DNA of 63,199 nucleotides from Candidatus Uhrbacteria bacterium (GCA_016219925.1 JACRJU010000001.1:1-63199), one strand, 5' to 3'. Shown: positions 16,870 to 51,446, counted from the first letter of the stretch. A program made the numbers and translations. Notes: generated by a model from the sequence alone, not told the origin.

Positions 16870-17649
16870 TTATACAGGCAATGGCGTCAAAATCTCCACT
16901 CCCGCTTTGGTCACCGCTATTGTCACCTCGAAGTGCGCGCCAACGGAACGATCCTTCATCACAATGCACCAACCATCCTCCCCGGTTTCCACTTCGTGAC
17001 GGCCGCCAAGTCCAAGCATGGGCTCGAGCGCGAGGCACATGCCATCTTGAATTTCTACGCGGGGGTACTGATCGGAAACAAAATTCGGCACATGCGGAGA
17101 CTCGTGCACGGCATGCCCGACCCCGTGTCCCACCAGCGCGCGCACGATGCCATATCCGTACGGCTTCACAGACGACTCGATCGCCGCGCTGATATCTTTT
17201 ATAGTCCCGCCTACACGTGCCGCCTTCACTCCTTCCAAAAGCGAGGCACGCGTTACCTCCATAAGTTTGGCGTGCTCGGGATCCGCTTTCCCTACCGCAA
17301 CCGTTGTCGCCATGTCGGTGCACAGACCCTTGTACCAGCACCCGATGTCTAAACCAACGATATCGCCCTCTTTGAGAGCGGTGTCTCTGTTCCCAAGACC
17401 GTGCACGATCTCTTCGTTGACGGAGATGCACAGCGTGCTCGGAAACGGCATATCTTCAGGATGCGAACGATAGCCTTTAAAGGAAGGCGTCCCGCCGCCA
17501 TCTAAAATCACCTGCTCCCCGGCCACGTTCACTTGTGCGATTGTTGCACCAACCGTTACGGCATCCATGGCGGCTTTCAGAGCGCGCGAGAGAAGGTGCC
17601 CGCCTTCGCGCATTGCAGAAATTTCGTCTGGTGTTTTGATGAGAGCCAT
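16870..17649 (-). CDS. map: methionine aminopeptidase type I
   Basis: 259 aa with MALIKTPDEISAMREGG, DIVGLDIG and HGVGHAVHE metal-ligand motifs. Lies downstream of adk as in the spc cluster. Confidence 0.92.
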   Translation of the reverse strand: MALIKTPDEISAMREGGHLLSRALKAAMDAVTVGATIAQVNVAGEQVILDGGGTPSFKGYRSHPEDMPFPSTLCISVNEEIVHGLGNRDTALKEGDIVGLDIGCWYKGLCTDMATTVAVGKADPEHAKLMEVTRASLLEGVKAARVGGTIKDISAAIESSVKPYGYGIVRALVGHGVGHAVHESPHVPNFVSDQYPRVEIQDGMCLALEPMLGLGGRHEVETGEDGWCIVMKDRSVGAHFEVTIAVTKAGVEILTPLPV

Positions 17650-17697: not shown

Positions 17698-18330
17698 TCA
17701 GGATGACAGTGAGGATACGATCCTTTCGAACACCTCGTTCACATTTCCCTGTCCATCTACTCGGCGCACGATACCTTTCTTCTCATACTGAGCAATCACC
17801 GGCGCGGTGTCTTTTTCATAAATATCCAACCGCCGCGCGATGGCCTCGGGAGTGTCGTCGTCGCGTTGATACCACTGTCCGCCACACGCACAGATATCGC
17901 CGGGCTTGATCCCATCGCTGACACTACCCACTTTATTACAGACCTGACAAGTGAGCCGTCCTCCCAAACGCTTGAGCGATTCCTCGCGCGGAATTTCAAT
18001 GACAACCACATGGGTCGGCGTATCAAAATCAAAAGCGGCGTATTGGGATAAATTACGAGGATAGCCGTCAAGGATGTATCCGTTTTGGGTGTCGGGTTTT
18101 TCGAGTCGTCGCTTCAAGAAAAAAGCCGCGTCGACATCCGAGATAAGTTCTCCGCGCAAAATAATTTGGTTTAACTTTTCGCCGAGTGCGGAGCCAGAAG
18201 CCACCTCTTCGCGAATAAGTTGGCCGCTGCCAAAAAAGGGAATGCTAAATTTTTGAGACAAGCGTTCTGCTTGCGTCCCTTTTCCGCTCCCTTGCGGACC
18301 CATGAGGAGAATTTTGTGTGAATTGGACAT
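17698..18330 (-). CDS. adk: adenylate kinase
   Basis: Starts at MSNSHKILLMGPQGSGKGTQ (P-loop) and has a Zn-lid CQVC...CACG. The ORF extension up to 18567 is a GC-rich read-through artefact. Confidence 0.9.
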   Translation of the reverse strand: MSNSHKILLMGPQGSGKGTQAERLSQKFSIPFFGSGQLIREEVASGSALGEKLNQIILRGELISDVDAAFFLKRRLEKPDTQNGYILDGYPRNLSQYAAFDFDTPTHVVVIEIPREESLKRLGGRLTCQVCNKVGSVSDGIKPGDICACGGQWYQRDDDTPEAIARRLDIYEKDTAPVIAQYEKKGIVRRVDGQGNVNEVFERIVSSLSS

Positions 18331-18364
18331 ACGAGGGCTAGTGTAACAGAAGAAGTACGAAATG

Positions 18365-18386
18365 AAAAAAGAGCCTTGGGAGGCTC
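18365..18386 (-). terminator. intrinsic terminator after the 2OG oxygenase gene
   Basis: Minus strand reads gagcc-tcccaa-ggctc followed by T6, 9 nt after the stop codon. Confidence 0.5.
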
Positions 18387-18394
18387 GGGAGAAG

Positions 18395-19519
18395 TCATGC
18401 GACGCGCAGGCGAGCCATGCGCGCGCGGTACTGCGGTGGAACGCGATCGCCACGCGCAAGCTCCGAGGACGGGAAGAGCTTGATCCGTGCGAGCTCGACG
18501 GACTCGAAGTCGCCGGCGTAGATCGGCGGGTACTGCAGAAGCGTCTGTGCGGTCGCGAAGTGGCCAAGCGGACGCATCACCCAACGGGTGGCGAAATGAA
18601 CGAAGAGGTTGGAGCTGACTCGAATGGGCCGTTCGCCGCGAGCGACGATCGCCGCGGCATCGGCAAGCGCCTCCGGAGTTCCCAGCACCTCGTGCTTGCC
18701 CGCGAAGAAGCGGCCGCCCGTCACCCACTCGAGCGACTTGCCGGCCTGGGCGAGCAGGCACCCGTCTGGAACCTCGACCAGGAACGGTTGTCCATCGAGC
18801 GTCCAGCAAACCAGAGCGCGTATGTTCGTCTGGCCGTGCACGGTGATCGCGTTGAAGTCGTAGTGCAGGCCTGCGAGCACCTGACCAAGCTGAACCGTTG
18901 CGAAGTTGCTCCCGGTCGGCCCCAAGATGTGCGGACCGCCCTCGAGCATCCGAGACAATGTGCAGCGCTTGAGTCCCATGCCGATCGAGATGATCTGCAT
19001 GATGTCGTAGGCGGCCGCGAGCATGCACCCGCCCCATGTGTTGAGCGGGCCCGCGATGTGTGCGAACCGTTCGGGGATCTTGGCGCGGGTGTTGACGTTG
19101 GGCCACGGGGTGTTCGTCGGACGGACCCCGAGCGCCCACATAAACCGCGCCTTGAGGTCAGGGCGACCAGCCACAGTCAACGGACGATGCTCGGAAGGCA
19201 GGGTCGCCACCCACGCGGAGTGATCGAGCGGAAGTTCGGTGCCAGGCGGGGTCATCCCGAACTGGTAGCCGACGTCCTTTCCATCGAGCGCCGCCTGCTC
19301 CTGCGGTGAAGCGCCATGAATACCGATCATGGTGCGCCGGAAGTTCTCCTGAATCCGGGACGTGACGCGCGCGTCCCGCAGGCAGATGACCCCGAGGCGT
19401 GCGAACGCTCCCGTAACCTCGACCAGCTCGCGCTCGGTCATCTGGCCGGCTCGAAACCGATCCAGATCTACGACCGGAATTTCCGGCCGCGTGTATCGCA
19501 GGGGAAAGGGTGTCTCCAT
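18395..19519 (-). CDS. 2-oxoglutarate/Fe(II)-dependent oxygenase (isopenicillin N synthase-like)
   Basis: 374 aa with an HxD...H facial triad (GLHYDFNAITVHG ... FFAGKHEV) and an RxS motif (PIRVSSNLF). Strong SD: GGAGGA then 4 nt then ATG. About 68-70% GC on hand-counted 60-nt samples. Confidence 0.7.
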   Translation of the reverse strand: METPFPLRYTRPEIPVVDLDRFRAGQMTERELVEVTGAFARLGVICLRDARVTSRIQENFRRTMIGIHGASPQEQAALDGKDVGYQFGMTPPGTELPLDHSAWVATLPSEHRPLTVAGRPDLKARFMWALGVRPTNTPWPNVNTRAKIPERFAHIAGPLNTWGGCMLAAAYDIMQIISIGMGLKRCTLSRMLEGGPHILGPTGSNFATVQLGQVLAGLHYDFNAITVHGQTNIRALVCWTLDGQPFLVEVPDGCLLAQAGKSLEWVTGGRFFAGKHEVLGTPEALADAAAIVARGERPIRVSSNLFVHFATRWVMRPLGHFATAQTLLQYPPIYAGDFESVELARIKLFPSSELARGDRVPPQYRARMARLRVA

Positions 19520-19617: not shown

Positions 19618-20877
19618 CTAGATTTCGTATTCGCGCATGGTTAACTGCGCTTCTATTTGCTTCACGCTATCAATCACAACGGCCACGATGATCAAAATGG
19701 ACGTTCCGCCAATCACAAGATTTGGGTTGCCTGTCGCGTGTTGAACCAGAAGTGGCAAAACCGCAATGACAGATAAGAACGTCGCCCCGGCAAGCAAGAG
19801 GCGGTTGGTAATCCACCCCAAGTATTCAGATGTATTTTTCCCAGGACGGATGCCGGGAATAAAGCCTCCTTGCTTTTGAATATTCTCCGCCACTTCATCC
19901 GGATGAAATACCACAGCCGAATAAAAATAGGTGAACAGAAACACGAGCAGGAAGTAAGCGATCCCGTAGATCAGTTGATTCTGGAAAAGCTGGAGAACAA
20001 CCGTTGCGGCGTTTCGCAGAATTTCGGTGCGCGCGTTCAAGAAAAACTGCGCGAGCACGCTTGGAAACAAAATGATTGAGATCGCAAAGATGATCGGGAT
20101 CACCCCGCCCATATTGAGTCGAAGAGGAATATGAGACGCCACCCCACCCGACAACCGCGAGCCTTGCACATGGCGTGCATACTGAACGGGAATATTGCGC
20201 TGGGCCTCATTCATGATGACAATTCCGATGATCGTCACAATCGCCGCAACGACAAACAAGATAAGGGTGATGAGCTGACTTCGATCATACACAACCAGCG
20301 ACTGCGAGAGCGTGGTCGGCAAACCGGCAATGATACCCGCCAAGATCAAAATCGAAATACCGTTCCCAATGTTCTTTTCAGAAATAAGCTCACCAATCCA
20401 CATAAGGAAAATGGTCCCTGCGGTCATGCTCAAGATTGCAAAAAATATCGTCAGGGTCCCTGGATGAAAAAAGGTCCCTTTTTGGGAAAGGAGTAGGATG
20501 AGGCCGTAACCCTGAATGAACGCAAGGGGAACTGTGGCCCAGCGCGTCCACTGATTGAGTTTCTGACGGCCTTGTTCTTCTTTTTGCATCTCTTCCATCG
20601 ATGGGATGATCATGGCCAACAGCTGAAAGATAATGGAAGAGGTGATGTAAGGTGCGACTCCCATGGCCACAATAGAAAAATTCTTAAGTGTTCCACCGGA
20701 GAAAATGTTGAGCAGGCCAAAAAATTGATTGCTTGAAAACAAATCTTTAAGAGAGGAAGCGTCAATGCCTGGAACAGGAATGTGTGCTGTGACGCGAAAG
20801 AGCACGAGCATGAGCAGGACGAACAACAAGCTATTGCGAACCTCCTTAGTATGCCAGATGCGAATGAGCGTGTTCAT
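19618..20877 (-). CDS. secY: preprotein translocase subunit SecY
   Basis: 419 aa polytopic membrane protein downstream of rplO. Confidence 0.95.
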   Translation of the reverse strand: MNTLIRIWHTKEVRNSLLFVLLMLVLFRVTAHIPVPGIDASSLKDLFSSNQFFGLLNIFSGGTLKNFSIVAMGVAPYITSSIIFQLLAMIIPSMEEMQKEEQGRQKLNQWTRWATVPLAFIQGYGLILLLSQKGTFFHPGTLTIFFAILSMTAGTIFLMWIGELISEKNIGNGISILILAGIIAGLPTTLSQSLVVYDRSQLITLILFVVAAIVTIIGIVIMNEAQRNIPVQYARHVQGSRLSGGVASHIPLRLNMGGVIPIIFAISIILFPSVLAQFFLNARTEILRNAATVVLQLFQNQLIYGIAYFLLVFLFTYFYSAVVFHPDEVAENIQKQGGFIPGIRPGKNTSEYLGWITNRLLLAGATFLSVIAVLPLLVQHATGNPNLVIGGTSILIIVAVVIDSVKQIEAQLTMREYEI

Positions 20878-42237: not shown

Positions 42238-43035
42238 CTATCTTTCCACAGAGTTATCCACTTTGTTTTCCACCCCAACGGTTTGTACGCATACCGAAGG
42301 TCCAAACAATTGATGAACGGTCTTTTCAAAAACAGCTGACGGCTTAGAAACAAGGACGAGAGTTTTTCCCTGCCCGTCTGTGTTAAACACGGCCACCGCT
42401 TGTTCCGCCACCGCCTCACTGGGATCAAAAAACCGCATAGGCATTTGTGCATGCGCAAACGCGCGCGCAAAAGCCGCGCGCGCAAACGGGTACTGCGTGC
42501 ACCCAAATACAAGCGTATCCGCTCCGATCTCTTGGGCGCGTTTAACGGCTGGCAAGATGAGGTGATTGAGCTCTTCCGGCGAAGCCTCACGTTCGATCGC
42601 ACTGGCCAAATCAGCAAGGGCGATCATCTCCGTTGCAATGCCTTGAGCGCCAAAAGCCCGTTCGTACAATCCAGATCGCACGGTTGCAAGCGTCGCTGCC
42701 ACAAGAACTTTTTTTGGGGACAACTGGTAAAGGGCATGCGTCGCCGGACCGACCATCTCAATCACCCGCGCATGAGATGACCCAAACAAATCCAGCATGG
42801 GGGCAAGCACAGCAACAGAAACACTGTTGCACGCGGCCACAAATTCCGTGGCGCCCGCCTGGCGCAAGCGCGTCATGGCATCGAGGGTCAGAGTGAATAA
42901 TTCATGAACAGGTCGCGGACCATACGGCATGTTGGCCAAATCGCCAAAATAAACCAAATCCGCCCGAGGAGCTTTTTTGCGGATCTGACTTGCGGCGCCT
43001 AAACCGCCAATCCCTGAATCAAAAATCCCAATCAT
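42238..43035 (-). CDS. murI: glutamate racemase
   Basis: MIGIFDSGIGGL N-terminus with ACNS and GCTQYP catalytic Cys motifs (ORF open to 43080). Confidence 0.9.
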   Translation of the reverse strand: MIGIFDSGIGGLGAASQIRKKAPRADLVYFGDLANMPYGPRPVHELFTLTLDAMTRLRQAGATEFVAACNSVSVAVLAPMLDLFGSSHARVIEMVGPATHALYQLSPKKVLVAATLATVRSGLYERAFGAQGIATEMIALADLASAIEREASPEELNHLILPAVKRAQEIGADTLVFGCTQYPFARAAFARAFAHAQMPMRFFDPSEAVAEQAVAVFNTDGQGKTLVLVSKPSAVFEKTVHQLFGPSVCVQTVGVENKVDNSVER

Positions 43036-43985
43036 AGCGAAAGATGCGCTGTGAGCACGCGCGCCGCGTTTTGGTAGCACAATTTTTCCATCGTCATCTC
43101 GGTGATGCCAGCCTGCCGAAGCGCCTGAAAAAAATCCGGCAATTTCTCAAGCGATTCAAGCCCATCTACAAAGCCAGAAATGATCCCACCAAAATCTGTT
43201 CCAAGAGCGATATGCTCGTCACCGATGGTTTTTAGAAGATGTTCCACATGAGCCACAACATGGGAGATCGTACCGGGTTTTTCTTTCCCTGTCACGAATG
43301 TCTTAGCGAAGAAAAGGCCGATCACTCCCCCAGAGTCAGCAAGTGCGCGAAGTTGAGCATCGGAATAGTTGCGTGGGTTCTCGCACAGCGCCCGACAGTT
43401 TCCGTGGCTGATATAAATGGGGCGATCCATAATCTTGACCACGTCCCAAAATGTTGGCTCGTTCATGTGAGCAAAATCAATGACCATCTGTTTTTCTTTA
43501 GCCCACTCAATGACCTGTCGACCCAGAGGCCTGAGCCCTTGGGTCGGATCTTTCGTTCCCCCACCAAGAGGATTGGTGAGATTCCAAACGATCCCGAGCG
43601 AGCGCCATCCTTTCTGATACCATTGCTCTAGACGTTCGAAGCTGTTTTCATCAACAACATTAAGCCCTTCGATGTGCATAAGGATTCCAATCGGACCCTC
43701 GAGCGCCAATACGCGCGCGATATCGCTGGCCTGTGTAACAAGCATCCAACCTGGTTGGGTGCCTTGCAGGCTATACGCATCGAATTCTTTTTCGATGAGG
43801 TCGTTTGAAATCGGATTAAAATAATTCTCCTCCGACGGAACCGGAAAAGCTGTAGCCACCACCAATTTGAGGCCCGCGCGTTTGATCATTTCAAAATTCG
43901 TCTGCCACTGTCCCTGCGGATAGAGATCCCGCCGAGTGATGTGCAGAAGGAGGTCTTGGTGCGTGTCGATGATGGGGTATGTCAT
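43032..43985 (-). CDS. membrane dipeptidase (peptidase M19)
   Basis: IIDTHQDLL, ISHGN and GTDFGG motifs. Confidence 0.8.
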   Translation of the reverse strand: MTYPIIDTHQDLLLHITRRDLYPQGQWQTNFEMIKRAGLKLVVATAFPVPSEENYFNPISNDLIEKEFDAYSLQGTQPGWMLVTQASDIARVLALEGPIGILMHIEGLNVVDENSFERLEQWYQKGWRSLGIVWNLTNPLGGGTKDPTQGLRPLGRQVIEWAKEKQMVIDFAHMNEPTFWDVVKIMDRPIYISHGNCRALCENPRNYSDAQLRALADSGGVIGLFFAKTFVTGKEKPGTISHVVAHVEHLLKTIGDEHIALGTDFGGIISGFVDGLESLEKLPDFFQALRQAGITEMTMEKLCYQNAARVLTAHLSL

Positions 43986-44017
43986 AGGAGGAAAAGAAAG
44001 AAAAAGGAGGGAGGGAG
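43986..44017 (+). repeat. 32-nt pure polypurine near-mirror repeat
   Basis: aggaggaaaagaaagaaaaaggagggagggag. On the minus strand it is a polypyrimidine leader abutting the dipeptidase ATG. Confidence 0.9.
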
Positions 44018-44078
44018 CCGAACGAAAACGATCAGCTCCCTGAAGTCGGTCATCAGACTGCCCGAAAGCCTGCTGACC

Positions 44079-45209
44079 TTAAGGAAGGAAACGCCGAAGA
44101 GTCCTGACGGCTTCGGTCAAGTCGTGAAAGGACGTCTCAAGCGCCCAAGGGTGAATGTACAAACCTTCGGGATGATCGAGCAGATCGTACTGACTCAAGA
44201 AGGTGCCATCGGAGATATCGTAAAACGGATCCGAGCACTCCGCCACCGCCGCGCGCAGATGCTCATGAAATCCGGAGCGTTGATCGCGCACCTGCTGAAT
44301 GAGCGTCCGTTTGTCCGTTGCCACCCGCATGCGCTCTCCAACAGACGCTTCGAAGTACTGGGTAGAGAGCCAGAGGTCAACGAGATGGTCGAGGGCGGAA
44401 CGGCGCGCGGGTGGAACGACAAACCGCATGTCCGCCACCGGAACGAGATGAAGCGTCATCACTTCAGGGAGTCCCCAGTCGAGCGTCCGACGCACCAGAT
44501 CGTAGAACGCGCTCAACTTAGGCATCATCTCGTCGATGTAGCGGTACATGTCCGGACCGGAAAGTTCATAGACATCACCGGCCCCTCCAAAACACGAAGG
44601 ATCAATCGTCACATCCATGAGGATGTTGGCGATGTTGGGAGAAAGCCAGCCCGCGCGCGAAGCGTTGGTGCCCACGACTCCGGCCACCTCAACAGCCGTC
44701 CATGTGTGGACTCCGCGGTTCTCCGTTGTGCCGTTTTCGTACGCGTACCGTTGCCAGATTGTGTGATCCTCACGCGTGAGCACTTCCAAAAGAGCCATCA
44801 CGCGCTGGGCATGTTGGTGTAGATAGGCGCACAAAGTCTGAGTCTGTGCTTGAGGAACCGCGCGCTTGAGCGCGTCCATGTGGACGTCAACGGTCGCGGT
44901 GTCTCCGAGGGCCGTCACCACATCAGAAACGTAGGGATGGGTAACCCGCGCGTGGCTCGTGAGCACGTCGTCACGCGCGATTTGCATGCGCTTCCCTGCC
45001 CGGATGATGCAATGGGGATGGAAATTGCGATCCAAGGATCCCTTGGTCGCATCCACCACCTTCATCGGGATGCCAAGCTGCGCACACGCCAGGTTATTGG
45101 GATACCAATTGCCAACGTGAGGCGTCTTGAATACAGGAAAACCTGCCCGCTGGAAACCAGCGAGATCATTCAGGGTCAAGTCCCAACGAACCTTCAGTTG
45201 AAGCGGCAT
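44079..45209 (-). CDS. hypothetical protein (GC-rich island, partner of the RelA/SpoT-like gene)
   Basis: 376 aa from MPLQLKVRW, preceded by GAGGAG; the ORF is open to 45269. I recognise no family motif. About 65% GC on a hand-counted sample. Confidence 0.6.
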   Translation of the reverse strand: MPLQLKVRWDLTLNDLAGFQRAGFPVFKTPHVGNWYPNNLACAQLGIPMKVVDATKGSLDRNFHPHCIIRAGKRMQIARDDVLTSHARVTHPYVSDVVTALGDTATVDVHMDALKRAVPQAQTQTLCAYLHQHAQRVMALLEVLTREDHTIWQRYAYENGTTENRGVHTWTAVEVAGVVGTNASRAGWLSPNIANILMDVTIDPSCFGGAGDVYELSGPDMYRYIDEMMPKLSAFYDLVRRTLDWGLPEVMTLHLVPVADMRFVVPPARRSALDHLVDLWLSTQYFEASVGERMRVATDKRTLIQQVRDQRSGFHEHLRAAVAECSDPFYDISDGTFLSQYDLLDHPEGLYIHPWALETSFHDLTEAVRTLRRFLP

Positions 45210-45273
45210 GAATCTCTCTCCTCTTCGTTGTTGCCGATTCTGGTGCCCTGTTCGCGACAAGGACACCACCCTG

Positions 45274-45310
45274 ACAAAAACGAAAAACCCGGGCTGGACT
45301 GCCCGGGTTT
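45274..45310 (-). terminator. intrinsic terminator between the two island genes
   Basis: 10-bp stem aaacccgggc/gcccgggttt (45285-94/45301-10) followed on the minus strand by TTCGTTTTTG. Confidence 0.6.
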
Positions 45311-45444
45311 CATGGTTTTCGCGACAAATTACCTACGCAAAAATCCATGGGCAGTCCCAGGCTCATTCCAGCGGCGGTAGGTGTGATGGATTTGTTGCAC
45401 GATGACTTTCATAACTCTCTTAGCATACGCTTTTCTAAAGCCTT

Positions 45445-45474
45445 GTCAAATAAAAGAGACCCGAAGTCGGGTCT
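45445..45474 (-). terminator. intrinsic terminator overlapping the stop of the RelA/SpoT-like gene
   Basis: 7-bp stem agacccg/cgggtct (45457-63/45468-74) followed on the minus strand by CTTTTATTT. Confidence 0.5.
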
Positions 45475-46630
45475 AGGAGGAAGTATTGTGCTCGCCCTCG
45501 ACGCGCCAGCCAAGCTGGGCGATCTTTCGAGAGGACACAAGGTGGCGCACATGAGGGTTGCCCCAGTCGATCTCGTAAATCTCCACCGGCCACAAGTGCG
45601 GGAAGTGGATGTCGAGCGCTTGACGAAGCTTGTACAGAGCGTGATTGGCGCCTGTGAGCGAACGCGCCGCGTTGAAGTAGTCGTGAAAGGCAATGAACTG
45701 GAGTTCGTACTCCCTGCCTCGCCAGCGCAGGCGCATCTTGGCAACTTTGTACTGCGATGACGAGTGACCATTGTCCGGATCGACAGAGCCGGACGTCGAG
45801 AAGTTCGCCGCCAGAGGTTCGGTCATGACCGCGTTTTTTTCGATCAGGAGATCCGTGATCCGCTTGGCAAGCTGGGAAACATCATCACGGCCTTCAACAA
45901 CGAACATGAGACCGCATCGGTCCGGCACGACAAACGGATCGTCCAGTCCGTTGTGCACCCGTCGTTGCATCTTGAGCCAAACTCCAAACGGGTCTTTGAT
46001 CCGATGGTGGAGAAACACCAGGCCGTTGTCGCGGACCCGCCGGCACATCAGACGCGTCTTGCGACGAATCTTCCCGATAGCCCGATGACTGAGGTGCTTT
46101 CCGATCCCGACGTCGTTGGGCCCGACCAGGTACTCGTGTTCGGGATCGTGATAGACAAAAAAGTCTGTGGGCTCGAAGCCGCCGACGAACAGTCGATCGC
46201 TTAACAAGTCAATCAACGCTTCGATTCCTCGCCCAACAAGCTCGACCGGATCGGCTTTCTCGATCTGGGTGAGCGCGAGAGCTTGGTCGAACAGGCTGAT
46301 GGCATCAAACCAGCGCTGGGGATCCGGCTTGACCCGAGGCTGATGCTTCAGCGCAAGCTGGAGCAGACGATCCATATGCGGGGTTGTCGCAACCGAAGAG
46401 TCGCGCTCGAGCCGATCCCCAAGCCCTGGCGCATAGTTCTGAATGAGAGCACGTTGTCCGGCCCGCACACGCTCAAGCGCATAGACGAACAGTTCACGAT
46501 CTCGGCTGGTCACCTCGTTGAGTAATGACCGACGCCAATAGATCGTATCCGAATGAACGCGCAGCCAATCGTCCTGACGAAATTGCAATTCGTTCCAAGA
46601 AATCACGAGCCCTCCCTGATATGGCCGCAC
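45473..46630 (-). CDS. RelA/SpoT-like (RSH synthetase-fold) nucleotidyltransferase with an N-terminal helical domain
   Basis: 385 aa. The motif order HHRIKDPFGVWLKMQRR ... PDRCGLMFVV ... YKVAKMRLRWRGREYELQFIAFHDY ... ANHALYK mirrors RxKxxxSxxxK / DxxGxR / EIQIRT / AHWxYK of alarmone synthetases. The assignment was made by eye. The start is uncertain: GTG at 46630, or GTG at 46606 after GGGAGGG. Confidence 0.5.
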   Translation of the reverse strand: MRPYQGGLVISWNELQFRQDDWLRVHSDTIYWRRSLLNEVTSRDRELFVYALERVRAGQRALIQNYAPGLGDRLERDSSVATTPHMDRLLQLALKHQPRVKPDPQRWFDAISLFDQALALTQIEKADPVELVGRGIEALIDLLSDRLFVGGFEPTDFFVYHDPEHEYLVGPNDVGIGKHLSHRAIGKIRRKTRLMCRRVRDNGLVFLHHRIKDPFGVWLKMQRRVHNGLDDPFVVPDRCGLMFVVEGRDDVSQLAKRITDLLIEKNAVMTEPLAANFSTSGSVDPDNGHSSSQYKVAKMRLRWRGREYELQFIAFHDYFNAARSLTGANHALYKLRQALDIHFPHLWPVEIYEIDWGNPHVRHLVSSRKIAQLGWRVEGEHNTSS

Positions 46631-46664
46631 TCAATTCTCACTTACGGCACCCGCAAAGATACAT

Positions 46665-46692
46665 AAAAAAACGCGAGGCGTCAACCCCGCGT
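46665..46692 (-). terminator. intrinsic terminator after ndk
   Basis: Stem acgcg-gg/cc-cgcgt (46671-78/46685-92) followed on the minus strand by T6. Confidence 0.6.
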
Positions 46693-46704
46693 CCTTCGAA
46701 CCGG

Positions 46705-47172
46705 TTAAATTCCCTCCCCAACGTGATATCGATCCGTAATTTTTTCGTAAGCGAACAATTCATCCTCGTTGAAAAATCGTTTAATTTCAGTTTGCGCGGA
46801 TTCGGGTGAATCAGAAGCATGAATCAAATTTGATGGGACGTTCATTGAAAGGTCGGCCCGAATCGTTCCAGCATCCGCTTCGCGTGGATTGGTAGATCCC
46901 ACCAATTTACGCACTTCCGAAACCGCGTCATATCCTTCAAGCACCAATCCAGCCACAGGCGTCTGCATCATGAATTCTTTAAGAGCAGCAAAAAATGGTT
47001 TGTCGGAAAGATGCGCATAATGCTCATCCAGCATCTGCGAAGTCAGTCGAATAAACTTCATCCCGATAATCTTCATGCCCTTTCGTTCGAAGCGAGAGAC
47101 GATCTCCCCTAAAAGATCGCGCTGAAGCGCGTCGGGTTTGAGCAAAACAAGAGTGCGTTGTGTTTGTGGCAT
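46705..47172 (-). CDS. ndk: nucleoside diphosphate kinase
   Basis: RTLVLLKPDALQR and NLIHASDS active-site motifs. Confidence 0.93.
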   Translation of the reverse strand: MPQTQRTLVLLKPDALQRDLLGEIVSRFERKGMKIIGMKFIRLTSQMLDEHYAHLSDKPFFAALKEFMMQTPVAGLVLEGYDAVSEVRKLVGSTNPREADAGTIRADLSMNVPSNLIHASDSPESAQTEIKRFFNEDELFAYEKITDRYHVGEGI

Positions 47173-49570: not shown

Positions 49571-50892
49571 AGGTGCTGATCCGGGATCCCAATCCCGAAG
49601 TAGCGAAATCCTTGTGCAGGTAAATCAAGATCACACAAGGCGTTACGCCCGTCGAAAATTACGGGGTCAACCATGTGAGTTTTGAGTGTGGCAAAAGAGA
49701 CCGCGCGTAACTCGGGCCATTCCGTCAAGACGACGAGAGCATCAGCTCCGGACGCGGCATCAATGGCTGTCGGCGCATACGACACCGTGTCAGGCAGGAC
49801 GCGCGCGGCGTTCGTTTGCGCTTTGGGATCAAACGCCACCACTTCGGCGCCGTGCGCCACTAGCGCTTGCACAAACACAATCGCGGCAGACTCGCGAATA
49901 TCATCCGTATCCGGTTTAAAGGCCAGTCCCCATACGCCAATGCGACGTCCTTTGAGAGGCCCAAGAACGCTCTGCATTTTTTGAAAAAATCGTTGCCACT
50001 GACGATTGTTGACATCAATAACGGCGCTCAACAATTTAAAATCGTATCCATTGATTCCCGCGTATGATTTCAATGCGCTCACGTCCTTGGGGAAACACGA
50101 TCCGCCAAATCCGATCCCCGCGCGCAAGAACTGTGGGCCAATGCGACGGTCCAAACCAATGCCATGGGCGATCTCGCGGACATCTGCACCGGTCCCCTCA
50201 ACAATATTCGCCACTTCATTGATAAATGAAATTTTTGTTGCCAAAAACGCATTCGCACACACTTTGATGAGCTCCGCCGATTCGATGCTCGTGCGCACGA
50301 CAGGACTTTTAATCCCTTGATGCAATTGTTCAGCGGTTTGAAAAACCACGTCGTCATCCGCTCCAATGACGATGCGGTCTGGATGCATGAAATCATCAAG
50401 AGCACTGCCCTCGCGCAAAAATTCTGGAATTGAAGCGATGTGAATGAGCGCGGCGAGATCCGTTTTCCCCTGCTTACACATACGTTCATGAATGCGCGAA
50501 AGAACGTGGCGGTTGGTTCCCACAGGAACGGTACTTTTTACGACGACCAACGCTTCGTGCGTTAAGAACTCACCGATCTGATCTGCCGCTTTGAGCACAT
50601 AAGAAAGGTCGGCCTGTCCCCGCGCGGTCGGAGGAGTTTGAACCGCAATCATAATGACATCGGCTTGATCAATCACGCTTTTCAAGTCCAACGTAAAAAC
50701 AATCTGTCCCTGCTCTTGAAGCGACTTGAGCGTTTCTTCAAGTCCGGGTTCATAAAACGGCGCTTGACCCAAATCCAGTTGAGCCATTTTGGCGCTGTCG
50801 GTATCCACACAGGCTACGCGGTGCCCCAAAGAGGCAAAGCCAAGACCCGTGGTTAACCCAACATATCCCGTTCCAATCATGACGATATTCAT
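49567..50892 (-). CDS. ugd: UDP-glucose 6-dehydrogenase
   Basis: MNIVMIGTGYVGLTTG Rossmann motif and GGSCFPKD catalytic Cys. Confidence 0.9.
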   Translation of the reverse strand: MNIVMIGTGYVGLTTGLGFASLGHRVACVDTDSAKMAQLDLGQAPFYEPGLEETLKSLQEQGQIVFTLDLKSVIDQADVIMIAVQTPPTARGQADLSYVLKAADQIGEFLTHEALVVVKSTVPVGTNRHVLSRIHERMCKQGKTDLAALIHIASIPEFLREGSALDDFMHPDRIVIGADDDVVFQTAEQLHQGIKSPVVRTSIESAELIKVCANAFLATKISFINEVANIVEGTGADVREIAHGIGLDRRIGPQFLRAGIGFGGSCFPKDVSALKSYAGINGYDFKLLSAVIDVNNRQWQRFFQKMQSVLGPLKGRRIGVWGLAFKPDTDDIRESAAIVFVQALVAHGAEVVAFDPKAQTNAARVLPDTVSYAPTAIDAASGADALVVLTEWPELRAVSFATLKTHMVDPVIFDGRNALCDLDLPAQGFRYFGIGIPDQHL

Positions 50893-51446
50893 AACAAACC
50901 CAATAATCGTTTGAGGCCCTCCTTGGCTGGTGCGTGATATTTTGCCCGAACAAGTTCTAAACGCAAGTCCTGTTCAATCCAAGCCAACTTTCCCCCATCA
51001 ACCAAATCAATGAGTTCATCAAGCGTGACCCATTCGATTTCAATCCACTCACCGGCATCCAAATGGGGAACTTGTTGGTATGTCACGTTCCGAGCGACAT
51101 AGACAAAAATTTGCCATTCCATTTTTGAAAGCGGACGCGTCTGACGATACAAAATCCACTCAGGGGAAACAAAACCTGTCTCCTCAAGAAGCTCCCGCTT
51201 GGCGCCATCAAGACTCTCCTCCCCTTTTTCGATACGGCCGCCGGGTAAACAGTAAAACAGCGGCTTGCGAGGTTGTTCTTGTTTTTGCAACAGGATTTTT
51301 CCCTCTTTAATCGCAAGAACCTCGGCGGTATCTTGACGCGCGAGCATCTCAAAGGTCTCCGTTGTCCCATCAAACATTTCTTGCGGCCACTGGTAAACAT
51401 CAAACAGCACACCGGAAAAAACTTTTTTTGCGTTTTCAGGAATCAT
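50889..51446 (-). CDS. NUDIX hydrolase
   Basis: Nudix box GGRIEKGEESLDGAKRELLEETG. Confidence 0.85.
   Translation of the reverse strand: MIPENAKKVFSGVLFDVYQWPQEMFDGTTETFEMLARQDTAEVLAIKEGKILLQKQEQPRKPLFYCLPGGRIEKGEESLDGAKRELLEETGFVSPEWILYRQTRPLSKMEWQIFVYVARNVTYQQVPHLDAGEWIEIEWVTLDELIDLVDGGKLAWIEQDLRLELVRAKYHAPAKEGLKRLLGLL

Follow-up and report, generated by a model that had tools for sequence, protein, structure and literature searches.

Enzymes of the RelA/SpoT homologue (RSH) superfamily have been classified into 30 small alarmone synthetase (SAS), 11 small alarmone hydrolase (SAH) and 13 long RSH subfamilies, and the published classification does not mention the candidate phyla radiation (CPR) (PMC7229694). 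The pairs formed by toxic SASs (toxSASs) are tight, often overlapping operons (PMC7229694). In SASs, the Tyr against which the acceptor stacks is reported to be highly conserved, and it is essential in FaRel2 (Y128) (bioRxiv 10.1101/2021.04.30.441581). A large part of bacterial diversity belongs to the CPR, or Patescibacteria, whose growth regulation is almost unknown; our literature searches found no paper connecting Patescibacteria with (p)ppGpp signaling.

Here, we analyzed a 63,199-nucleotide stretch of DNA from a Candidatus Uhrbacteria bacterium (GCA_016219925.1 JACRJU010000001.1:1-63199), which we refer to as the window, and in particular two minus-strand genes at 44079-46630, which we call geneA and geneB. 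A prediction made from the sequence alone (the original prediction) had proposed that geneA codes for a RelA/SpoT-like enzyme and that the two genes form a toxin-immunity or defense pair on a horizontally acquired island. Our results supported the enzyme assignment and spoke against the pair and the island. We think it probable, although by no means certain, that geneA encodes a stand-alone and very diverged enzyme of the RSH superfamily, an inherited housekeeping pyrophosphokinase that is found only in the CPR among named records and to which geneB is unrelated.

The geneA product called in public data (45473-46606, minus strand) has 377 amino acids and starts at a GTG at position 46606, with the Shine-Dalgarno sequence AGGGAGGG located 5 nt ahead of it. 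The original prediction had described a protein of 385 amino acids; an open reading frame (ORF) extending to a GTG at 46630 does exist, but the called product is the shorter one, and motif positions are given here in the 377-aa numbering. An AlphaFold2 model built on the 20 closest sequences (predicted local distance difference test score [pLDDT], 91.1; predicted template modeling score [pTM], 0.88) indicated two domains. The N-terminal domain (amino acids 1 to 138; 46193-46606, minus strand) was all-helical in the model and acidic, with an isoelectric point (pI) of 5.9. The C-terminal domain (amino acids 139 to 364; 45515-46192, minus strand) was a basic (pI 9.25) alpha/beta domain that resembled RelA/SpoT synthetases and had an extra N-terminal beta hairpin. 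In the model, only about 13 residues followed the final helix of the catalytic domain, and there was no C-terminal extension able to serve as a CapRel-type antitoxin domain.

To place the predicted fold, we compared the geneA model with PDB structures using Foldseek, and the best matches fell inside the RelA/SpoT fold. Specifically, Rel, RelSeq and SpoT structures occupied ranks 1 to 6 and rank 8, and FaRel2 was at rank 13. The best structures were 7oiw, 24io, 1vj7, 7qpr and 8pu4, with probabilities up to 1.00 and E-values of 3.6e-3 to 0.4 over about 130 aligned columns. Further matches were nucleotidyltransferases of the Pol-beta type (GrpB, CCA enzyme, Pol X, TdT and OAS2), and these were placed below the top Rel structures.

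Searches with single sequences or close relatives did not reach the RSH superfamily. The geneA protein had no matches in Pfam, NCBIfam or PADLOC, and the synthetase family PF04607 was absent even at an E-value of 1 or less. Single-sequence PDB searches with the geneA and geneB proteins returned no matches, the close-family profiles A1 (the 20 closest geneA relatives) and A2 gave only chance-level PDB matches, and PHROGs gave a single weak match, for geneA, to a family without known function. An exhaustive HMMER search with a geneA family profile recovered 285 clusters at an E-value of 1e-3 or less. The family thus comprises at least 285 clusters, defined at 50% identity, and many members are 400 to 740 amino acids long. 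The few source names that we saw were all "hypothetical protein."

When 90 distant members were included (profile A3), the PDB search returned Bacillus subtilis Rel (E-value, 9e-7), RelSeq (1.7e-5) and Mycobacterium tuberculosis Rel (2.9e-5), followed by Staphylococcus aureus Rel, Escherichia coli RelA and then the small synthetases (0.03 to 0.2). In the A3 alignment, RvKdpfsillKm fell on RPKHIYSIYRKM, DDrrGlrfV fell on YDLLAVRIL, and the invariant Asp of the family fell on the catalytic Asp. We also used hhalign to compare the family with a reference alignment of E. coli relA and spoT and the B. subtilis Rel domain, the last taken from a PDB alignment. The match had a probability of 91% and an E-value of 1e-6 with 76 family sequences, and a probability of 96.5% and an E-value of 8.6e-10 with 158 family sequences; it covered amino acids 151 to 331 of geneA. 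In addition, 7 of 91 distant members reached PF04607 at the homologous position, with 18 to 21 bits against a cut-off of 27. The predicted structure and the family profiles together showed that geneA has the fold of an RSH-superfamily synthetase and is homologous to these enzymes at the profile level, as the original prediction had proposed.

The four peptide strings on which the original prediction was based were all present in the stated order, and a single hhalign register spanned all of the motif parallels that had been drawn from them. The first, HHRIKDPFGVWLKMQRR (amino acids 200 to 216; 45959-46009, minus strand), was aligned to RPKHIYSIWRKM of RelA/Rel and is the equivalent of the ATP phosphate-binding RxKxxxSxxxK motif. 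Over the 158 family members in which we counted residue conservation, the ATP phosphate-binding equivalents R202, K204 and K212 were kept in 149, 158 and 150 members, respectively, and the Ser position of the motif varied. The second, PDRCGLMFVV (amino acids 228 to 237; 45896-45925, minus strand), was aligned to FDVRAVRIV and is the DxxGxR equivalent. It contains D229, the counterpart of the Mg2+-coordinating Asp (compare RelSeq D264 and FaRel2 D90), which was kept in 158/158 members. At position 234, where DxxGxR has its Arg, geneA carries Met, and R, K and M were found in 38, 34 and 30 members, respectively.

The segment DPDNGHSSSQYKVAK (45737-45781, minus strand) corresponds to PKPNGYQSIHT, the loop that binds the acceptor. 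The Asn and Ser of this loop were kept (N279 in 146/158 members and S282 in 139/158), and the stacking Tyr was replaced by His. At this site, which hhalign placed at position 281, His was found in 52 members and Phe in 14, the remainder were variable, and the position was never dominated by Tyr. Position 286 was aromatic (Y or F) in 129/158 members and might substitute for the missing Tyr; the alignment of the geneA acceptor loop to RSH sequences could also be shifted. In YELQFIAFHDY (amino acids 300 to 310; 45677-45709, minus strand), the EIQIRT equivalent, the Glu and Gln of the ExQ strand were kept (E301 in 157/158 and Q303 in 122/158) and the Arg and Thr were lost: position 305 was never Arg in the 158 members, and position 306, which is Ala in geneA, was Thr in 72. 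Finally, ANHALYK (amino acids 320 to 326; 45629-45649, minus strand) is the AHWxYK equivalent in the hhalign register, with H322 kept in 143/158 members, Y325 in 154/158, and Lys or Arg at position 326 in 134/158. Judging from the alignments and the model, the catalytic core looks RSH-like and active, and the novelty appears to lie in the acceptor site and in the accessory domain.

The accessory domain at the N terminus had been described in the original prediction as an unrecognized helical domain of about 190 amino acids. The helical part was borne out, but only for about 138 amino acids, and residues 140 to 203 turned out to be beta strands of the catalytic domain. Distant family members retained the domain, as their profile matches began at positions 30 to 40. 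A profile of the domain had no match in the PDB. We considered a degenerate HD hydrolase domain and rejected this idea, since hhalign paired SpoT/RelA with the synthetase part only. This acidic domain probably has a regulatory role toward the basic catalytic domain.

We then examined the genomic context of geneA through homologue look-ups, a scan in which each species was represented by one genome, and tblastn searches with the proteins that neighbor geneA in the window; distant relatives were sought in the collection scan with one distant clade (A5). In the window, the upstream neighbor of geneA is ndk (46705-47172, minus strand), the gene for nucleoside diphosphate kinase, whose product matched PF00334 in homologous loci. 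The gene order UGDH-ComEC-(MBL)-ndk-geneA recurred in Candidatus Uhrbacteria and in metagenome-assembled genomes (MAGs) of other Patescibacteria, with geneA identities that ranged from 60% to as low as 29-33% (the latter in loci L019 and L021). A same-strand ndk gene was located at most 1.3 kb upstream of geneA in 19 of 28 distinct loci. Distant clades kept ndk directly upstream in otherwise different settings (L030, L031, L032, L033 and L045), including surroundings with MgtC and beta-propeller protein genes (L031) and with NusB and RNase III genes (L032). The loci in which ndk was not upstream included a NUDIX-fused form and two single loci. The downstream neighbor of geneA varied and could be murI, geneB, an M20 peptidase gene on the other strand, an EPSP synthase gene or others.

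The spacer between ndk and geneA (46607-46704 in the window; likewise in L004, L009, L012-L015, L017 and L019) nearly always contained a strong hairpin followed by a T-run, with a TTGACA-like box in the loop or directly after it. In the window, this terminator-like hairpin and T-run lies at 46697-46666 (minus strand); its loop includes a TTGACG box resembling a -35 element, and it is followed by a putative promoter of geneA. About 1.26 to 1.29 kb separated ndk from geneA in two Uhrbacteria loci (L011 and L018). We also noted small unannotated ORFs near geneA: 161 amino acids between geneA and geneB in L006 (7249-7734), and 134 amino acids (L030:4553-4957) and 61 amino acids (L031:4819-5004) between ndk and the RSH-like gene. 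The 61-aa ORF overlaps the start of the RSH-like gene, and such small ORFs were not conserved family-wide.

The original prediction had put the guanine-plus-cytosine (GC) content of the two-gene stretch at about 65% and had taken the stretch to be compositionally foreign. The measured GC content of 44079-46630 was 0.569, and its richest 60 nt reached 0.72. The mean of the window was 0.507, with a standard deviation of 0.026 among segments of the same size, which puts the two genes about 2.4 standard deviations above the mean and second in rank, behind 16.9-19.4 kb (0.587). The GC content of the neighboring genes was 0.46 to 0.54, and the GC content at third codon positions was 0.67 to 0.68 in the two-gene stretch versus 0.45 to 0.60 in the neighbors. 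The GC content of geneA orthologues ranged from 0.43 to 0.59 and tracked that of each host, often lying a few points above that of adjacent genes. Because of this tracking, we regard the offset of 6 points as a property of the gene and not as a sign of recent transfer. No flanking repeats of the att type and no tRNA genes were found at the borders of the two-gene region, and phage and plasmid tblastn searches and IMG/VR yielded no relatives. With ndk-geneA and the larger UGDH-ComEC-ndk-geneA block kept in relatives at 29 to 60% identity, geneA belongs to the vertically inherited genes of the chromosome and not to the cargo of a mobile island. Among named records, the geneA family is confined to Patescibacteria. 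Several TPA_asm MAG records among L008-L012, L016, L017 and L020 are titled "uncultured Gammaproteobacteria bacterium"; they have the Uhrbacteria gene order and this CPR-only family, and the titles are probably mislabeled.

These data suggest what geneA might do. Its product would be an active, Mg2+-dependent pyrophosphokinase with ATP as the donor, which would be bound via R202/K204/K212, D229 and E301/Q303. It would move the beta,gamma-pyrophosphate onto the 3'-OH of its acceptor, for which a purine nucleotide is the most likely candidate. The choice of acceptor is suggested by the linkage to ndk in at least three otherwise different contexts, by NUDIX fusions and by the place of Ndk in the (p)ppGpp cycle; Ndk interconverts nucleoside di- and triphosphates in the classical GDP/GTP-(p)ppGpp cycle (bioRxiv 10.1101/350843). 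The fusions were found in three distant members of the family (P0235, P0257 and P0274; about 735 amino acids; L029:5001-7220) that bear a C-terminal NUDIX domain, and the fused pyrophosphohydrolase domain would act as a built-in degrading activity. In one of these proteins, there is a weak phosphoribosyltransferase-like stretch between the two domains. A stand-alone NUDIX gene also lies between the LeuRS and UGDH genes in the window (50889-51446) and likewise in L001, L005 and L025. Given the remodeled acceptor loop, the reaction may yield something other than canonical (p)ppGpp. A more specific proposal, which we put forward tentatively and consider the less probable outcome, is that the family is the CPR's own alarmone-type synthetase, with a remodeled acceptor site that yields a non-canonical 3'-pyrophosphorylated nucleotide, coupled to Ndk and sometimes fused to NUDIX.

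Several observations weigh against an inherited RSH-type pyrophosphokinase that is linked to Ndk. The closest family alone (A1, n = 20) had no significant RSH match, nor did geneA by itself, so the homology is transitive, resting on distant-member profiles and on structure. With an alignable portion of only about 130 residues, all Foldseek E-values were weak (3.6e-3 at best) and template modeling (TM) scores were low. Neither the stacking Tyr nor the EIQIRT Arg and Thr is present in geneA, and for this reason its catalysis or substrate may differ substantially. A Falkowbacteria-like clade (L035-L043) occurs in variable contexts and has no ndk link. A strong terminator-like hairpin separates ndk from geneA in most genomes; with this terminator and then a TTGACA box between them, the two genes are neighbors and not a demonstrable operon. 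The losses in the active site lead to the question of whether geneA keeps the RSH/Pol-beta fold but has changed to another activity, for instance nucleotidyl transfer or the mere binding of nucleotides, or serves as a non-catalytic regulator. The acceptor-loop Tyr, the DxxGxR Arg and the EIQIRT Arg and Thr are all gone, PF04607 is out of reach, and GrpB, CCA enzyme, Pol X, TdT and OAS2 are among the structural matches, but Rel structures ranked above all other transferases. Moreover, R-x-K...K, a single Asp (versus the D-x-D of Pol-beta), E-x-Q and H-x-x-Y-[KR] are ordered and near-invariant over the 158 sequences, which argues for a conserved RSH-type active site and makes changed chemistry improbable.

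The same remodeled acceptor loop, which lacks a guanine-type site, would also suit an enzyme that pyrophosphorylates the 3' end of RNA, such as the CCA end of tRNA that is the acceptor of FaRel2, CapRel and PhRel2; geneA would then be a chromosomal, regulated brake on translation that is not part of a toxin-antitoxin module. The activity is established for RSH enzymes (bioRxiv 10.1101/2021.04.30.441581), geneA has a basic catalytic domain (pI 9.25), and 8pu4, the FaRel2 structure, was among the Foldseek matches. However, tRNA-targeting toxSASs retain the stacking Tyr that geneA lacks, the ndk linkage and NUDIX fusions favor free nucleotides, and no antitoxin-like partner is conserved. We consider an RNA acceptor unlikely, although somewhat less so than changed chemistry. 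The least probable explanation, in our estimation, is the one proposed originally, in which geneA is a toxSAS or CapRel-like defense enzyme that is paired with geneB, as antitoxin or immunity partner, on an acquired island. In its favor, geneA is RSH-like, stands alone and has an additional domain, the pairing of a basic catalytic part with an acidic N-terminal part is reminiscent of tRNA-binding toxSASs and of fused neutralizing domains, and the GC content is moderately raised. Nevertheless, geneB adjoins geneA in three distinct loci only, and each gene is widespread without the other. Between them lies a gap of about 260 nt that holds a terminator and, in addition, a conserved promoter and leader of geneB's own. 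The place of geneA in a housekeeping block is maintained down to 29-33% identity, and relatives were absent from PADLOC, phages, plasmids and IMG/VR, with one weak match in PHROGs. Neither border repeats or tRNA genes nor a CapRel-type C-terminal extension was present. We therefore return to the RSH-superfamily housekeeping pyrophosphokinase as the preferred explanation for geneA.

The second gene, geneB (44079-45209, minus strand), has an ATG start at 45209 and encodes 376 amino acids, as the original prediction had stated. It was found beside geneA in 3 of 29 distinct settings, the window included (the others being L005 and L006/L016). Most geneA loci had no geneB, and geneB was found without geneA, beside ndk or ProRS. 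In L025, for example, the closest geneB homologue (64% identity) directly follows ndk with no geneA and lies ahead of the same M19-murI pair. In Moranbacteria-type genomes, geneB overlaps the ProRS stop codon and is followed by a methyltransferase gene, an unknown 432-aa gene, a Mur ligase gene and an ATP-grasp enzyme gene. The two genes were thus mostly not syntenic elsewhere, an outcome that the original prediction itself had named as speaking against a functional pair. No second copy or paralogue of geneA or geneB was found elsewhere in the window. Likewise, no canonical RelA/SpoT gene was present in the window or in the flanks retrieved around related loci, which represent a small portion of each genome.

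The geneB family includes more than 100 clusters, all named "hypothetical" and all from CPR phyla. The protein had no sequence match in Pfam, NCBIfam, PADLOC or the PDB. Its AlphaFold2 model (pLDDT, 95.9) gave weak Foldseek matches in two libraries to PanC and the class I aminoacyl-tRNA synthetases GluRS, ArgRS, GlnRS and CysRS, with probabilities of at most 0.23 and TM-scores of at most 0.28, and also to RuvC-like folds. The invariant residues were H31, D60, H64, H110, S217-G218-P219, Q340 and D342. An invariant P-H-x-G-N sequence after the strand at positions 26 to 28 presumably resembles HIGH/TIGN, the kind of signature expected behind the first strand of the Rossmann-like core in class I aminoacyl-tRNA synthetases and PanC-like (HUP) nucleotidyltransferases, which we offer as a lead only. 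A role in amino acid, peptide or cell wall metabolism is suggested by the ProRS, Mur ligase, M19 and murI neighbors. We conclude that geneB is an unrelated, orphan, enzyme-like protein of the CPR that is not dedicated to geneA as a partner; that it follows geneA in a few genomes is a coincidence of position.

The region upstream of geneB contains a conserved leader (45210-45450, minus strand), which was also present in L005 (7135-7407), L025 (4731-5000) and L006 (7735-8100). Its elements are arranged in the order promoter, small ORF, region 1-2 stem, terminator, second hairpin and Shine-Dalgarno sequence. The putative promoter (45449-45422, minus strand) has a -35 box TTGACA, which was invariant, and a -10 box TATGCT. 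The small ORF of 27 codons, MKVIVQQIHHTYRRWNEPGTAHGFLRR (45412-45329, minus strand), was conserved in three loci. The predicted intrinsic terminator (45311-45284, minus strand), which is the third terminator-like hairpin of the region and lies between geneA and geneB, has a 5' arm that can form an alternative, antiterminator pairing. The leader was 79% identical at the nucleotide level across the window, L005 and L025, whereas the geneB proteins were only 62 to 64% identical, and it was conserved in L025 although that locus has no geneA.

Pairing in the leader was evaluated with RNAalifold and by pair counts, with three to four sequences in all. The 5' arm of the terminator paired alternatively with a segment of the small ORF over 9 bp (9/9, 9/9 and 8/9 in three loci). 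This antiterminator helix was 96.3% paired with one compensatory pair, which was not significant with three sequences. The helices of the termination state were 96.6% paired with five compensatory pairs, a result equaled in 1/500 shuffles of the three sequences, and the second hairpin had four compensatory pairs. The fold z-score of the leader was -2.8. The L006 leader had a different sequence and the same logic. No Rfam family matched anywhere in the window at the gathering threshold, and below the threshold there were only weak matches of the leader to Leu and rnk leaders; the Rfam search ruled out a known riboswitch or T-box. Taken together, these features make the leader look like an attenuator of geneB transcription, a candidate for a new element of this kind or another new cis-regulatory RNA. 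Like the leader-peptide attenuators of the trp, leu and thr operons, it has a putative promoter, a short ORF, predicted mutually exclusive 1:2, 2:3 and 3:4 pairings and a predicted intrinsic terminator before the gene. Unlike those leaders, it has no conserved run of one regulatory codon, and its small ORF, if translated, would have a very short 5' untranslated region.

With regard to the remainder of the locus, geneA and geneB are both real genes on the minus strand, and they lie between ndk and a dipeptidase-murI pair, as had been described. The gene for the M19 dipeptidase (43032-43985) is the neighbor on the far side of geneB, and murI (42238-43080) is beside it. The long shadow ORFs that had been noticed on the opposite strand were likewise found, with 293 (43941-44822), 176 (44850-45380) and 146 (45764-46204) amino acids. 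The two genes had also been described as bracketed by intrinsic terminators. In this case, terminator-like hairpins followed ndk and geneA, the latter with its T-run directly past the geneA stop codon (45474-45457, minus strand), but none was called directly after geneB. Elsewhere in the window, an ORF of 374 amino acids (18395-19519, minus strand) is located between secY (19618-20877) and adk/map (17698-18567 and 16870-17649), in the GC-richest patch (0.587). It had no Pfam or NCBIfam match and gave weak PDB matches to 2-oxoglutarate-Fe(II) oxygenases and thymine dioxygenase (E-values of 1.8e-5 to 3.5e-3).

The geneA family keeps the RSH catalytic core and the company of ndk, and it is therefore a testable candidate for nucleotide second-messenger synthesis in the CPR, a candidate that Pfam, NCBIfam and PADLOC miss at curated thresholds. 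If the family is indeed the CPR's own alarmone-type synthetase, these minimal host-dependent bacteria would have a stringent-response-like growth control that current annotation has overlooked. Because its acceptor loop is altered, the family also represents a natural experiment on substrate change in RSH enzymes. In addition, a false lead has been removed, as the locus is no defense or toxin-antitoxin island, and geneB is worth studying alone, given its attenuator-like leader and its ties to ProRS, Mur ligase and dipeptidase genes.

The closest known relatives of geneA are the SYNTH domains of long RSHs, followed by the small synthetases. The SYNTH domains of Rel, RelA and SpoT (7oiw, 1vj7/24io, 6yxa/8acu, 5xnx and 7qpr; PF04607) were the best structural and profile matches, and they share with geneA the order of the motifs (RxK...K, the Mg-binding Asp, the N-G-x-x-S loop, ExQ and HxxY[KR]) and an alpha/beta core of the nucleotidyltransferase type. 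Unlike the long RSHs, geneA has neither an HD hydrolase domain nor a C-terminal regulatory region of the TGS/ACT type, and it carries an unrelated 138-aa helical domain at the N terminus as well as the extra beta hairpin. The stacking Tyr, the DxxGxR Arg (in the geneA clade) and the EIQIRT Arg and Thr of the long RSHs are not conserved, and the family is below the PF04607 threshold or invisible to it.

RelQ and RelP (5dec, 6ewz, 6fgk, 2be3 and 3l9d) are, like geneA, stand-alone chromosomal synthetases with a single catalytic domain and no antitoxin. Unlike geneA, these SASs are about 210 to 250 amino acids long, have no N-terminal domain, and keep the Tyr and EIQIRT. To our knowledge, RelQ and RelP small alarmone synthetases have no ndk linkage. 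FaRel, FaRel2, PhRel, PhRel2, CapRel and Tas1 have diverged RSH synthetase domains, as geneA does, and their acceptors are not guanine nucleotides (ATP or the tRNA CCA end). In contrast to the toxSASs and CapRel, geneA has no tightly linked, conserved antitoxin gene, mobile or defense context, or PADLOC match, lacks the Tyr that is essential in FaRel2, and has been inherited vertically across a phylum-level radiation. Compared with these described systems, what appears to be new, as a class predicted from sequence and models, is a CPR-wide, ndk-associated family of RSH-like proteins with a novel N-terminal domain and a remodeled acceptor site.

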